From the IMG/VR virus record IMGVR_UViG_3300045988_091674: a stretch of 64,000 nt of DNA; one strand, written 5' to 3'. Both the position numbers and the translations under genes were made by a program. A model generated the notes under the pieces. The model saw only the letters and a program-made list of their open reading frames with translations, was not told the DNA's origin and ran no database searches. This DNA is from a virus. Below are positions 19,688 through 24,255 of the stretch, one piece after another; within the stretch, counting starts at the first letter, position 1; every line of letters starts with the position of its first letter.

Positions 19688-20410
19688 TTAAAAGAAGGGG
19701 CAGATTGGCATTTCCTCTGTTTTATGTAGGTTTCTCTTGTGTCTCTGCTCAATATTTTTATATACTTCATACGGAGGAGTAATACGATATAGCAAAAAGT
19801 TATCAAGAGTTTTATAAGAAAAACCTAGATTCTCTTCATCTGAGAGTCCAGTTAATCCATCTTCTGGAACTTTTTCTATAAATTTCTCCGGTAGACCAAG
19901 TTCTAAACCAATCTCTTTAACTTCTGTTACTGTGTAATTGTGCAGAATTGAAAAATCTCCCGCGGAATCACCAAATTTGGTTGAATAACCAACATAATTT
20001 TCACTTCTATTACAAGTGTTTGCAACTCTACCATGTCGAGCAGCCGCGATGGCATAAAGAATATTCATTCTTTCTCTTGCTGGAACGTTACTTACAACTT
20101 GAGGAAGATTACGAATATCAGAGGGTAGGGAGAAAAAAGTTGCTTTGCAAGCCTCTCCAATGTTGATATTATAATGTTCTTTAATGCCTAGATACTCAAT
20201 AACTTCATTTGAAATATCAATGTCTGATTGATACCCTTGTGGCATTTGAACTGCAATTACATTTTCTGGCCCAATAGCTTTACAAAGCAGTGCGGCAGCG
20301 ACAGTAGAATCTTTTCCTCCAGAAATACCAATAACAGCTTTGCAGTCCGGGCCGTTGTCGATAAAATATTTTTTAATCCAGTTAATGATTCTTTGAACTC
20401 TTATTGTCAT
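19688..20410 (-). CDS. nadE: NH3-dependent NAD+ synthetase
   Basis: 240 aa with PP-loop SGGKDS. Confidence 0.75.
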   Translation of the reverse strand: MTIRVQRIINWIKKYFIDNGPDCKAVIGISGGKDSTVAAALLCKAIGPENVIAVQMPQGYQSDIDISNEVIEYLGIKEHYNINIGEACKATFFSLPSDIRNLPQVVSNVPARERMNILYAIAAARHGRVANTCNRSENYVGYSTKFGDSAGDFSILHNYTVTEVKEIGLELGLPEKFIEKVPEDGLTGLSDEENLGFSYKTLDNFLLYRITPPYEVYKNIEQRHKRNLHKTEEMPICPFF

Positions 20411-20415
20411 AAGAT

Positions 20416-22005
20416 TTACTCTCCCATCAGTCGATTCTTAATTGTATAAAAATCTTCCTCGTTTTCGCGTACAAAAACACCATCTTTTACTTTGAATTTC
20501 ATTACATTATCCTTATATTCGATGGCTTCTTTAAGAGTAAGATTTTCAACAAGCCTATATTGGCCCTCTGAGTCTTTAACAACCGCTACGCATCCACGAG
20601 GAGATTTTTTCCCAGGATCGGTTTTTGGCATCTTGTAGATTTGGATTTCATCTTCTCCAAGAATACAATCGGTAGCCTTAATTGCATAGCCTCTAGTGTC
20701 ACGAGTTACATATTGATAAGTATATGCGCCAATTCCAAAACAGATATTTGATACTGAAATAGAATTATTGACACACCAATTACATATTTTTTCAGTGATC
20801 TCGGGAGTGATCGCATCGCCATAAATAACACGAATACAAGAGGGAAGCTCAAAATAACCCTTTCTATTAAGGTTGCCGCCAAAAGTATCAAAGAGACTGA
20901 CAAGAGTTCCTTTACCCTCCGGGGAGTCAGGATCAACAGCAAAACTTGTGTCCCCGCAAATGATTTTTACTGGATCTCCGCTATCGGGGCGGATGGAAAG
21001 GCATCCATCCCGCTGCTCGATAATGTCTCTCAATGCAGGAACAATTTTAGATACTACACCCCAATAATCATATGTATCTGCTACATAAGTCATTGTCCCA
21101 GTAGGCTGAATATTGATAAGAAGATGGCGCAGGAAGAGCATCTCAGCAATAAGATTAACTTCCCAATTTTCAGAGAGGCAAGTATTGAGTAGAGCTTGCT
21201 CCTCGGCTTCTAGCTCACCATTGAACATCTGCGCTCTTTTCCATGCTACACCCTGTTCAACAACAGAGTGCTCCAGAGATGGAGTTCCCATTAGAGGAGG
21301 ATTATTCTCTAAATCTGCTCCATAATATTTCTCCAAAAGAAGATTAGAACCAATGGTCGCAGTCCTATCAAAAGACAAAGCGTGCGCGGCGCCAGAGATA
21401 TAGCCCGCTTCAAGTGAAGTGTGACCGCGGAGAGAGAAGTCACCGCACATATGAGGGAGAGCAGACATATCGTCACAGGTCATCTTAACATAAGGCTCGA
21501 TTAGCTTACGTCGATAGAAGGCTGTCGTGGCAGAAGTAGAAGGAAGCCAGTTATTTGCACTCCACTGATCTTCAATAAACTGCGGAAGCCATGCAAATTC
21601 AGGATCAGTAGAAAAGATAACATGATCTGGAATACCGATAGGAAGAAGTGTACCTTCGGGAACTCCCATAATTGAAATGGGAAGATAGCCAAGCTCATAA
21701 AGTTTCCTAAACTTGCTGAAATCTGCATAGCCAGGATGGAAAGTATCCTTGATTACCCTGTTCCACTCGCTTTCAAGCAGATCAATGGGCTGATTAAAAA
21801 ATTCTGCCTGCCAGTAATTAAGCAGTCGCTGGATGGTATATTGATGGCCAAACACCATAGTTTTGGCGCAGTCTTTATGATATTTATTGCTGCGAGCAGT
21901 CCAAGTAGAATACACCATCTTTGCGTCGGCAGGCTGCATTTTAACCGCATGACCAATCTTATAATAGTCTGCCGCAAACATAGGTGCTACATCAAAGAAA
22001 CTCAT
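20416..22005 (-). CDS. nicotinamide phosphoribosyltransferase-like (NAMPT/NadV)
   Basis: 529 aa. Size and context within an NAD-salvage block. Assignment by overall similarity pattern, not a single motif. Confidence 0.55.
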   Translation of the reverse strand: MSFFDVAPMFAADYYKIGHAVKMQPADAKMVYSTWTARSNKYHKDCAKTMVFGHQYTIQRLLNYWQAEFFNQPIDLLESEWNRVIKDTFHPGYADFSKFRKLYELGYLPISIMGVPEGTLLPIGIPDHVIFSTDPEFAWLPQFIEDQWSANNWLPSTSATTAFYRRKLIEPYVKMTCDDMSALPHMCGDFSLRGHTSLEAGYISGAAHALSFDRTATIGSNLLLEKYYGADLENNPPLMGTPSLEHSVVEQGVAWKRAQMFNGELEAEEQALLNTCLSENWEVNLIAEMLFLRHLLINIQPTGTMTYVADTYDYWGVVSKIVPALRDIIEQRDGCLSIRPDSGDPVKIICGDTSFAVDPDSPEGKGTLVSLFDTFGGNLNRKGYFELPSCIRVIYGDAITPEITEKICNWCVNNSISVSNICFGIGAYTYQYVTRDTRGYAIKATDCILGEDEIQIYKMPKTDPGKKSPRGCVAVVKDSEGQYRLVENLTLKEAIEYKDNVMKFKVKDGVFVRENEEDFYTIKNRLMGE

Positions 22006-22088
22006 AAAATCTTCCTTTCCTTATTTCTTTATTATATTATAACATATATTTTTATAAAAATAAAAAGCTCTCATAAGAGAGCTTTTTA

Positions 22089-22457: not shown

Positions 22458-22903
22458 TTTAGAATCTCCCCAACAACAGTGCTTACAATTTTCATATCAG
22501 CTTTACCTTTGAGTGCCGCAGAAACATACTTCATAATCGCACCTCGGTTTGCTTTAAGGAGATCTATACCTGCGGCAGCTGCGATTTCTCTTACTCTTGT
22601 TTCAATCTCTGTTTTATCTGTAAGCAGCTGTGGAGCACACATTTTTACGATTTTCATATCCTCTTGATATTGATGCAACTTCTCAGAATAGTTAGCGGGG
22701 CAGGTATCAATCATTTCTTGCACAGTTTTTTGATACTTAATAAGAGTTTCATCAATTAACTGCTCTGTTAGTTCCACTCTTCCCTTCGGAGTAATTGTTG
22801 CTTTCTGACACGAATCAATCATGTCAGAAAGCACTCTCTTTGTATTTACGTCTCCATTTTTAAGAGCTGCAATTTTTAGTGCTTGAAGCTTTTCAATAGT
22901 CAT
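22454..22903 (-). CDS. GatB/YqeY domain protein
   Basis: 149 aa. YqeY-like fold indicated by an LKxxxxK-rich pattern and C-terminal AALKGKADMK. Confidence 0.5.
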   Translation of the reverse strand: MTIEKLQALKIAALKNGDVNTKRVLSDMIDSCQKATITPKGRVELTEQLIDETLIKYQKTVQEMIDTCPANYSEKLHQYQEDMKIVKMCAPQLLTDKTEIETRVREIAAAAGIDLLKANRGAIMKYVSAALKGKADMKIVSTVVGEILK

Positions 22904-23712
22904 CGAACAATTTCTACCTTTCCTCTAGTATCCCACTCAGGCTTAAAGATGCTATCAGTGGTAAAGATTTTCTTTACAATATCCTGATTATACATATCAC
23001 CTTCAACCATAGTATGTTCTGCATGAGTGACGTAAAGATAAATATTTTTTGCTCCTGCTTCTTTTAGAGCGTTTGCCGCGTGATAGAAAGTTCCTCCCCG
23101 AGAGCAAATATCGTCTACAATTAGAACACCCTTATCTTTAACCAACTCACCATTCATTAGTTGTAGACCAAGAATTTTTCCAGTAGACCAATCCCTCTTT
23201 TTAATTCCAAAGGCGTATGGAAGATTAATTGCTGGAGTGGAATATCTCTTCATAGCTCCCTCGTCCGGGAAAAATAGAACGGGAGTTTCTTTTTCATAAT
23301 GCTCAAAAAGTTTGATAGCCTCTTTGATTTCTCCAATAGGAGTAAGATCAATTACCCTATCGAGCAGAGCTAATGCTACATTAGAATGAGCATCTCTTAC
23401 AATGACTTTATCGAAGTGAAGACCATTGATTACTTGACAGAAATATTTAAGGGTAAACACATCTTCAAGTTCTTGCACTCTATCCATTCTTGCATGAGGA
23501 ATATATGGCATATCGAGCCTCAAGGGACAATCTTTAAAGTGTCCCTTTACGCAAATTAGAGTGAACAGTTCTGCATCGTTCTCATACTCCCAAAGAACGG
23601 TATCGTAATCAAAATAATTGGGCGGCATATTAATATGCAGCGTTCCATCGGGAAAATGATTTTGCTCAATTACATCTGTCCAATGACTGCGCGTGTTAAT
23701 CAGACTAATCAT
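22900..23712 (-). CDS. prs: ribose-phosphate pyrophosphokinase (PRPP synthetase-like)
   Basis: 270 aa. PRPP-binding VLIVDDICSRGGTF, and N-terminal MPYIPHARMDRV like Prs IPYFGYARQDR. Confidence 0.65.
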   Translation of the reverse strand: MISLINTRSHWTDVIEQNHFPDGTLHINMPPNYFDYDTVLWEYENDAELFTLICVKGHFKDCPLRLDMPYIPHARMDRVQELEDVFTLKYFCQVINGLHFDKVIVRDAHSNVALALLDRVIDLTPIGEIKEAIKLFEHYEKETPVLFFPDEGAMKRYSTPAINLPYAFGIKKRDWSTGKILGLQLMNGELVKDKGVLIVDDICSRGGTFYHAANALKEAGAKNIYLYVTHAEHTMVEGDMYNQDIVKKIFTTDSIFKPEWDTRGKVEIVR

Positions 23713-23715
23713 TTC

Positions 23716-24255
23716 TTAATCCTCCACATCAATCTGTTGAGCTTTGAAAATAGTTAGCGCTGCCTCATGCGATTCTGGAGTTACTCCTGCGCACGCACTA
23801 GAATGAACGATAATTCTAGTATTTGGCAACGCTGCACGAAGCATAACCGCGTTAGCCATAACGCAGATATCGGTACAAAATCCGCAGATATGAATTTCTA
23901 CTTCCTCTGGATTCTTCATCTTTAGAGAATCATATACCTCATTAACCATATCGGTACTGCCAAAGGTGTCTTTTTCATAATAATTAAACTTGTTATTCAA
24001 CGCAATCACGACTCTGGAATCCATACACCAGCCCACGCTTGCCTTAATACAATGTTTAACAGGAAGTTTCTTTCCTTCCAAAGTATCGAAGTAATCGTCA
24101 TCATGGGTATCCATGGTACAAATAATTTCTTCCCAACAGAATCGTTTAATTAGATCAACAATATTAGGAACTGCGGCATCCGCCTCCTTTGTACCTAGCG
24201 CCCTAGTGATGAAATCATTTTGAGCATCAACAATTATAAGTATCTTTCTATACAT
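23716..24255 (-). CDS. pncA: nicotinamidase / isochorismatase-family hydrolase
   Basis: 179 aa. IIVDAQNDF and catalytic Cys in CGFCTDICV. Confidence 0.7.
   Translation of the reverse strand: MYRKILIIVDAQNDFITRALGTKEADAAVPNIVDLIKRFCWEEIICTMDTHDDDYFDTLEGKKLPVKHCIKASVGWCMDSRVVIALNNKFNYYEKDTFGSTDMVNEVYDSLKMKNPEEVEIHICGFCTDICVMANAVMLRAALPNTRIIVHSSACAGVTPESHEAALTIFKAQQIDVED

Follow-up and report, generated by a model that had tools for sequence, protein, structure and literature searches.

Few antiviral strategies of bacteria are as common as the depletion of NAD+, and the chief counter-measure known from phages is NARP1. This system was discovered as a phage operon annotated as Prs and Nampt and is known from Bas63 and SPbetaL1 (Osterman et al. 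2024 preprint; Lan et al. 2026). In NARP1 the enzyme Adps makes ADP-ribose pyrophosphate (ADPR-PP) from ADP-ribose (ADPR), and Namat joins it with nicotinamide directly to NAD+. Here we describe a gene block with clear likeness to this system in a 64,000-nucleotide stretch of DNA from a gut phage (IMG/VR record IMGVR_UViG_3300045988_091674), which was analysed as a whole and is called the window. Six minus-strand open reading frames (ORFs) are arranged head to tail between positions 19688 and 24255. A previous reading based on the letters and ORF translations (the sequence-only reading) had named five of them as an NAD+ salvage module, and all five are present on the minus strand with the coordinates it gave; the sixth, 22089-22457, lies inside the block. 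The features are the following:

23716-24255, minus strand: PncA-type gene of the isochorismatase family (179 aa), gene 1 of the operon
22900-23712, minus strand: Adps-like gene of the Prs superfamily (270 aa)
22454-22903, minus strand: YqeY/GatB-C-terminal-like gene (149 aa)
22089-22457, minus strand: small membrane protein gene (122 aa), no family match, two hydrophobic helices by reading
20416-22005, minus strand: Namat-like gene of the NAPRTase/NAMPT superfamily (529 aa)
19688-20410, minus strand: NadE gene (240 aa), single domain, last gene of the operon
19659-19689, minus strand: intrinsic-terminator-like hairpin with a 13-bp stem, a 5-nt loop and a T-rich tail, overlapping the NadE stop codon

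The genes are separated, in this order, by a 3-nt gap, two 4-nt overlaps that join the YqeY gene to both its neighbours, an 83-nt gap and a 5-nt gap, and this spacing is operon-like. Behind the hairpin a promoter-like site (19659-19632) was detected ahead of the next gene. In the promoter and terminator scan of the region the site counts were no higher than in shuffled sequence, and therefore only the exceptional 13-bp stem after NadE carries weight. As the sequence-only reading had noticed for the five genes it named, the operon genes contain no in-frame TAG, whereas neighbouring genes contain 1 to 12. Over 100 independent loci have the same set of genes beside their homologue of the NAMPT-like gene, so the arrangement is not a matter of chance.

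When the module was searched against GenBank phages with megablast no match was obtained, and relatives surfaced only in protein-level searches. Among GenBank phages phAss-1 is nearest; it comes from the human gut, uses 'code 15' and is predicted to infect Clostridia. The same synteny, at 76% identity, is shown by L099, a contig of 149 kb that was placed in one bin with an Oscillospiraceae genome. Together, this contig and the host prediction for phAss-1 hint at a Clostridia host for the window phage.

Enzymes encoded by the operon

Profile hidden Markov model (HMM) searches with Pfam, NCBIfam and PHROGs bore out the earlier gene calls at the level of domains. The product of 20416-22005 falls into the NAPRTase/NAMPT superfamily, as had been proposed (Pfam, 86 bits; PHROG 448, 455 bits). 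However, the assignment as a NAMPT making nicotinamide mononucleotide (NMN) did not hold, since the best solved match is SPbetaL1 Namat (9W5X/9W5W) with 329 bits compared to about 137 bits for human NAMPT, and the protein carries the clamp signature of Namat. This adenine 'selectivity clamp', by which Namat is defined, consists of a helix with the motif GSXphiXphiXphiTRD and a loop that has Arg, Lys or Tyr as its third residue and supplies a stacking partner for the adenine (Lan et al. 2026). In the window protein the helix reads GAYTYQYVTRD; Tyr occupies positions 3, 5 and 7, and the sole departure from the motif is Ala instead of Ser at position 2. The clamp loop contains K41-Y42, where K41 aligns with R40 of SPbetaL1 Namat, and this matches the Lys-then-next-residue pattern described for the Bas63 enzyme. 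The adenine-clamp residues K41/Y42, Y428, Y432, T434 and D436 are thus kept. Furthermore, the catalytic core is identical (D13, Y15, F190, R193, R339, D341 and LEHS in the window protein; D13, Y15, F189, R192, R306, D308 and the histidine of EHS in the SPbetaL1 reference), and all ribose, phosphate and adenine contacts of the Namat-NAD+ structure are kept or conservatively replaced. Judged by its sequence, the NAMPT-like protein of the window is Namat-type and not a NAMPT.

The window Namat also contains an insertion of about 30-40 residues (EQGVAWKRAQMFNGELEAEEQALLNTCLSENWEVNLIAEMLF) at about residues 250-290, just past the catalytic His motif. This insertion belongs to the Namats of the window and the phAss-1 clade and is absent from SPbetaL1 Namat.

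The Prs-like protein matches Pribosyltran with 36 bits and PHROG 619 with 224 bits. Against the Prs model TIGR01251 it reaches 90 bits (cut-off 113), and for the other NCBIfam Prs models it stays far below the cut-offs. Over 200 aa it shares 38.7% of its residues with SPbetaL1 Adps (E 8e-40), while the best solved Prs gave an E-value of 1e-17, and the catalytic Lys equivalent to K162 of SPbetaL1 Adps is kept. Hence the suggestion that a Prs supplies phosphoribosyl pyrophosphate (PRPP) could not be upheld, as the protein misses all curated Prs cut-offs and resembles Adps more; by sequence it is most likely of the Adps type and not a bona fide PRPP synthetase.

For the PncA gene product the Pfam Isochorismatase model scored 73 bits, and its best solved relatives are the isochorismatase/nicotinamidase entries 6A8L and 5ZN8 and the P. 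horikoshii PncA 1ILW. In the alignment with 1ILW the catalytic triad of Asp (VDAQNDF), Lys (YYEKD) and Cys (GFCTDICV) as well as the metal ligands D49, H51 and H68 (LPVKHC) read as kept. The protein scores far below the NCBIfam PncA equivalog cut-off and is therefore a divergent member. The NadE protein is matched by Pfam NAD_synthase (157 bits) and TIGR00552 (152 bits, cut-off 64). Its best 16 solved matches are all single-domain proteins of 249-307 aa, 15 of which are named NH3-dependent NAD+ synthetase, and its translation shows an SGGxDS-type loop (GISGGKDS) and one ATP-pyrophosphatase domain but no glutaminase domain.

The YqeY protein (Pfam YqeY, 41 bits; PHROG 1460, 49.5 bits) and the small membrane protein occur solely in the subclade of the window (L003-L007 and L099). 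Neither has an evident NAD role, and both are regarded as accessory; for YqeY, its placement within the NAD module found no support in any link to NAD chemistry. For the product of 22089-22457, which is 66-68% conserved in L003-L007, neither a match in Pfam, NCBIfam or PHROGs nor an HxGH nucleotidyltransferase motif was found. It reads as a two-helix membrane protein, so the idea that an NMN or nicotinate mononucleotide (NaMN) adenylyltransferase might be hidden here was dropped, as it was for the other candidate, 18890-19624, which encodes a calcineurin-like phosphoesterase. The observation that no such adenylyltransferase can be recognised agrees with our own search, in which two seeds, NadD and NadM, were run with phmmer against all 367 window ORFs and gave a best E-value of 0.41 and no HxGH motif. 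Relatives of the Preiss-Handler enzymes PncB and NadD were not found in the window, and the flanks of related loci gave one weak NadD match (L087). Macro or RyR domains were not found in the operon.

Pyridine pocket and gene neighbourhood

The residues contacting nicotinamide were taken from the crystal structure of SPbetaL1 Namat. The window protein has kept five of these seven contacts (D13, Y15, F189, R192 and R306 in SPbetaL1 numbering), and the two at the amide end are changed, namely D215 to Ala216 and A242 to Ser243. Among the 122 unique sequences of this altered type the equivalent of D215 is always Ala or Ser and that of A242 always Ser. The first position corresponds to Asp219 of human NAMPT, which hydrogen-bonds the amide and defines the specificity for nicotinamide, and in SPbetaL1 Namat the mutation D215A lowers nicotinamide-dependent NAD+ synthesis about 8-fold (Lan et al. 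2026). Y188, H191 and G217, which line the same pyridine pocket in human NAMPT, also switch and are His185, Gly188 and Arg214 in the window. If the altered type is indeed a separate, nicotinate-using kind (see below), a simple sequence rule would tell the two kinds apart: G-T-D, His and Ala on the one side, x-T-A/S, Gly and Ser on the other. A basic residue near the expected carboxylate is provided by R214 and H185 in the window and by K214 or R185 in other lineages. A conserved basic residue as general carboxylate binder was considered and rejected, as it holds in several lineages but fails in that of Clostridium.

The distribution of the two pocket types was analysed in 178 loci drawn from three sources, namely GenBank phages, viral contigs of IMG/VR and genomes of GTDB, and 172 of these loci hold a Namat homologue. 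Each locus was scored for its pocket type and its neighbouring genes by profile HMM, and also after grouping into clusters of 70% identity, with the following result:

PncA nearby (profile HMM): 116 of 124 altered-pocket loci, 0 of 48 Asp/Glu-type loci
NadE nearby (profile HMM): 97 of 124 altered-pocket loci, 1 of 48 Asp/Glu-type loci
PncA nearby (70%-identity clusters): 14 of 14 with altered pocket, 0 of 22 of the Asp/Glu type

The sequence-only reading had missed that the remodelling of the pyridine pocket goes along with PncA and NadE. The altered-pocket loci without PncA are eight in number, and in six of these no more than about 1.5 kb separates the Namat gene from the end of the contig or locus. 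The lone Asp-type locus with NadE is Xanthomonas phage X1, which encodes a true NAMPT with a non-aromatic clamp region next to an NMN adenylyltransferase (NMNAT). NadE is present in every altered-pocket locus of the two phage collections; those that lack it are all loci of the genome collection, and in these a housekeeping NadE may be encoded elsewhere. An Adps-like gene accompanies almost every altered-pocket Namat and most of the Asp-type Namats.

The altered types fall into several deep lineages, named here by their motif:

R-T-A: the window and phAss-1-like phages
K-T-S
N-T-A: a large group from gut phages and Clostridia
G-T-A: Clostridium chromosomes

They are only 31-40% identical to the window protein. 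The position of PncA varies: the gene opens the operon in the window, separates Adps from Namat in Clostridium and follows NadE in L022. Since the gene order differs between the lineages, we argue that the linkage is selected for.

The chromosomal counterparts comprise about 45 Clostridium loci (L100-L145), which carry Adps, PncA and a G-T-A Namat in this order and in many cases NadE. Their Namats share with the Asp-type Namat of SPbetaL1 57-58% identity and the exact canonical clamp, GSYTYQYNTRD; despite this clamp they show the Ala/Ser/Gly pocket and are accompanied by PncA. Most of these loci have a Nudix-type match at a distance of 1-3 kb. In the one cluster that was checked, that of C. 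malenominatum (L121, 7709-12261), the genes follow a regulator of the NrtR family (Pfam; Nudix and NrtR winged helix), which is known to respond to ADP-ribose. By sequence, the Clostridium loci look like an ADP-ribose-responsive NAD recycling operon that has not been described before. A weak 'NMNAT' match beside these clusters was discarded as a candidate adenylyltransferase or ADPR hydrolase, as the match is limited to the Nudix half of the query and corresponds to NrtR in C. malenominatum.

Two further groups came up in the locus sample. Five jumbo-phage contigs of 313-554 kb (L056, L058, L059, L089 and L090) encode Namat homologues with G-S-E in place of G-T-D and the clamp GSFTYNVRSRD, and Adps, PncA and NadE were not detected within 10 kb of the Namat homologue. 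Four human faecal phage contigs (L023-L026; MT835946, MT836475, MT836279 and MT835800) carry a NadE that is 35-46% identical to the window NadE, and Namat, Adps and PncA were not detected on the same contig stretch. Either phage NadE also occurs outside the module or these contigs are too short to show it.

Proposed pathway and rival explanations

The claim that the window carries a phage NAD+ rebuilding module, fuller than the published two-gene pathways and of the kind that counters NAD-depleting defences, stood, with the anti-defence role as the inferred part. The chemistry attached to it, in which Prs gives PRPP, NAMPT gives NMN and a hidden NMNAT finishes the cofactor, did not. A NMN adenylyltransferase is unnecessary because NARP1 joins ADPR-PP directly to the pyridine base. 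We propose that the block 19659-24255 is one operon for a four-enzyme, deamidated version of NARP1, and consider the chances of this proposal to be somewhat better than even.

Bacterial NADase effectors such as TIR, SIR2 and similar proteins cleave NAD+ to ADP-ribose and nicotinamide. PncA would convert nicotinamide to nicotinate and NH3 (step 1), and Adps would form ADPR-PP and AMP from ADPR and ATP (step 2). The altered Namat, which has kept the clamp and lost the amide-reading Asp, would then join nicotinate and ADPR-PP to nicotinate adenine dinucleotide (NaAD) with release of pyrophosphate (step 3), and the ammonia-dependent NadE would turn NaAD, ATP and NH3 into NAD+ (step 4). In the list of features given above the four enzymes PncA, Adps, Namat and NadE stand in the order of these reactions. 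For steps 1, 2 and 4 the prediction comes from family membership and conserved active sites, for step 3 from the pocket change and the gene association; nicotinate as acceptor, NaAD as product and a function against host defence are all inferred. The wider claim is that in a widespread branch of the Nampt/Namat family nicotinate has replaced nicotinamide as the acceptor, with ADPR-PP kept as donor. This branch would then have a new activity, that of a nicotinate ADP-ribosyltransferase making NaAD in a single step, and form, with PncA, Adps and NadE, a distinct deamidated NARP1, which gut phages would use against NAD-depleting immunity and Clostridia, in at least one case behind an NrtR-family regulator, for recycling ADP-ribose. 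For this claim we regard the balance as about even.

Several points speak against these proposals. The use of nicotinate and the formation of NaAD by any Nampt-family enzyme are as yet predictions. In the Clostridium lineage the basic residue near the carboxylate is not evident. The N-T-A lineage has an insertion in the clamp helix and lacks its second aromatic residue, which makes its predicted donor specificity less certain. The NadE sequence does not discriminate between NaAD and NaMN as substrate, and its top two solved matches tie at 108 bits, namely 2E18 and 3FIU, the Francisella NMN synthetase. A neighbour-joining tree places the Asp-type Namats in a single clade, with the altered types as a basal grade, and the association with PncA and NadE could stem from a single ancient split and not from repeated co-evolution. 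Because this tree fails to demonstrate independent origins of the altered pocket, convergence is not claimed. Finally, the deamidated route costs one ATP more than NARP1, and any advantage is speculative: two strongly exergonic steps might pull the flux to NAD+, diffusible nicotinamide might be trapped as the nicotinate anion, or the route might suit hosts that rapidly deamidate nicotinamide.

Also to be counted here is that Namat accepts PRPP in vitro (Lan et al. 2026), which opens a route similar to the Preiss-Handler pathway. In such a route the Prs-like protein would make PRPP, PncA would feed nicotinate to the NAMPT-like enzyme for the synthesis of NaMN, host NadD would form NaAD and the phage NadE would finish. 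It accounts equally for the linkage with PncA and NadE and for the loss of the amide-binding Asp. The absent phage NadD is no obstacle if the host supplies the enzyme, and NadD is generally available in bacteria; moreover, Bacillus phage G carries a full classical PncA-PncB-NadD-NadE set, although this is a different solution from that of the window. However, the window enzyme keeps clamp residues that serve only the AMP part of ADPR-PP and the clamp of the Clostridium enzymes is canonical, whereas true NAMPTs do without these residues, as in phage X1 with GGGLLQKVNRD. The Prs-like protein falls below every Prs cut-off and groups with Adps, for which a published assay of the SPbetaL1 enzyme gave no Prs-type product. 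An Adps-like gene stands beside almost every altered Namat, while the NAMPT-NMNAT phage X1, the one such phage sampled, has no Prs-like neighbour. We therefore regard the PRPP-based route as unlikely.

Slightly less probable still, in our estimation, is that the operon encodes an ordinary NARP1, in which Namat makes NAD+ from nicotinamide and ADPR-PP and in which PncA and NadE push surplus nicotinamide into the Preiss-Handler pathway of the host and boost its last step. All core features of Adps and Namat are present, the D215A variant of SPbetaL1 Namat retains residual activity in spite of the about 8-fold reduction, and NARP1 operons are known to gain extra genes such as that of the Macro-domain phosphatase Adpp. 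But a nicotinamidase encoded in the same operon would compete for the substrate of Namat, and it would be left unexplained why only the two amide-end contacts change and why they do so together with PncA, which never occurs in the 48 Asp-type loci. The module could also act as a general metabolic booster, recycling ADP-ribose and nicotinamide from routine turnover and so raising NAD+ for phage replication. The look of housekeeping recycling given by the Clostridium loci, with an NrtR-family regulator in the one checked, would fit this idea. It concerns the purpose and not the mechanism and is compatible with the deamidated NARP1, but the phage operon is embedded in an island of RNA repair and counter-defence, and experiments have demonstrated that NARP1 acts against NAD-depleting defences. 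As an explanation for the phage operon we consider the booster improbable.

Genomic surroundings and known systems

On both sides the NAD operon is flanked by an RNA/tRNA-repair island on the minus strand (16906-19624 and 25297-29633), of which the part 16906-26091 is syntenic in L003-L007. It contains the following genes:

16906-17460, minus strand: calcineurin-like phosphoesterase
17457-17990, minus strand: PNK-like kinase
18052-18939, minus strand: Thg1-like 3'-5' polymerase
18890-19624, minus strand: calcineurin-like phosphoesterase
25297-26091, minus strand: RNA ligase
27970-28839, minus strand: calcineurin-like phosphoesterase
28836-29633, minus strand: RlaP nucleotidyltransferase

Immediately upstream of the NAD operon lies one copy of a Cys-rich repeat family (24339-25217), which has paralogues at 54006-55040 and 16353-16808 (minus strand). 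These proteins contain 'DLTGQKFGxLTVL...CxCxCG...SCGC' two or three times, followed by a C-terminal domain; two copies are TAG-recoded, and the one that was tested, 24339-25217, gave no Pfam match. Further along, 30773-33226 (minus strand) encodes a protein of 817 aa that has domains of the Major Vault Protein (MVP_shoulder with 65 bits, Vault_3 and Vault repeats) and is adjoined by the gene for a 514-aa protein with DUF2828 and DUF7788 (33588-35132, minus strand). Vault-like proteins are unusual in phages, and this one may be part of an RNA-repair or ribonucleoprotein system.

Many long ORFs of the window stay open only when TAG counts as a sense codon, for instance:

3515-4468: GIY-YIG protein with 10 TAG codons
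11635-13086: tail lysozyme and amidase with 12 TAG codons
54006-55040: member of the Cys-rich repeat family with 10 TAG codons

An array of 30 tRNA genes (35241-52881) includes a suppressor tRNA(CTA) at 36133-36207, which ARAGORN labels 'Pyl'. The read-through ORFs and this tRNA are consistent with genetic code 15, as in phAss-1.

Like NARP1, the window operon combines a Prs-family pyrophosphokinase with a Nampt-family transferase, keeps the core, the clamp and the Adps Lys and lacks an adenylyltransferase. It differs in D215 to Ala and A242 to Ser and in the changed equivalents of human Y188, H191 and G217, in the addition of PncA and NadE, and of YqeY and the small membrane protein in its own subclade, and in NaAD as predicted intermediate. 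A precedent for extra enzymes that widen the input of the pathway is given by NARP1-AP (Adps-Adpp-Namat, Vibrio phage Gary) and by NARP1 fuelled by RyDEP. However, these extensions act on the ADP-ribose side, on ADPR-1''-phosphate and cyclic ADPR, whereas the extension in the window acts on the pyridine side, with the predicted conversions of nicotinamide to nicotinate and of NaAD to NAD+. NARP2 (NadV/Nampt and NadM/Nmnat; Vibrio phage KVP40 and Xanthomonas phage X1, our locus L029) also rebuilds NAD+ with a Nampt-family enzyme, and in phage X1 NadE is located 3.5 kb away. But NARP2 keeps G-T-D, has the non-aromatic clamp equivalent GGGLLQKVNRD and needs a NMNAT, and the window shows none of these. 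With Preiss-Handler salvage the proposed pathway would share PncA as the first step, NadE as the last and deamidated intermediates, but the PncB and NadD steps are absent in the window, and the Adps/Namat-type pair in their place would bypass NaMN.

Chromosomal pairs of a Prs-like and a NadV-like gene, of the same general type as the Clostridium relatives, are known from bacterial nrtR-prs-nadV operons under an ADP-ribose-sensing regulator (Rodionov et al. 2008) and from Paenibacillus foliorum, whose bacterial NARP1 pair uses nicotinamide (Lan et al. 2026). In contrast to the Clostridium loci, the operons of these published examples contain neither PncA nor NadE. The aRES preprint describes that NARP1 operons sometimes hold additional genes, of which only a Macro domain is reported, and nicotinamidase, NadE or NaAD are not mentioned in this context in the Osterman preprint, the Namat structure paper or the Iyer-Aravind survey. 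In the openly searchable literature, to which the search was confined with subscription-only papers outside its scope, no paper was found that links NARP1 to a nicotinamidase, NadE or NaAD. So NARP1 itself is known, but no description of the four-enzyme nicotinic-acid route was found.

Should the proposed pathway be wrong, a clear NARP1-type operon remains, and the reading of the locus by way of PRPP, NMN and NMNAT is corrected in any case. If the deamidated NARP1 is correct, the residue swaps at the pyridine pocket would be natural templates for changing by design which base a Nampt-family enzyme accepts. In that case dozens of Clostridium and gut-phage loci annotated as 'Prs/NAMPT', and probably many more, would have to be re-annotated, and the direct formation of NaAD from nicotinate and ADPR-PP would be a new reaction in NAD biochemistry. 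Clostridia hosts favour the nicotinate branch, and phages of gut Clostridia would have re-routed their counter-defence through it.

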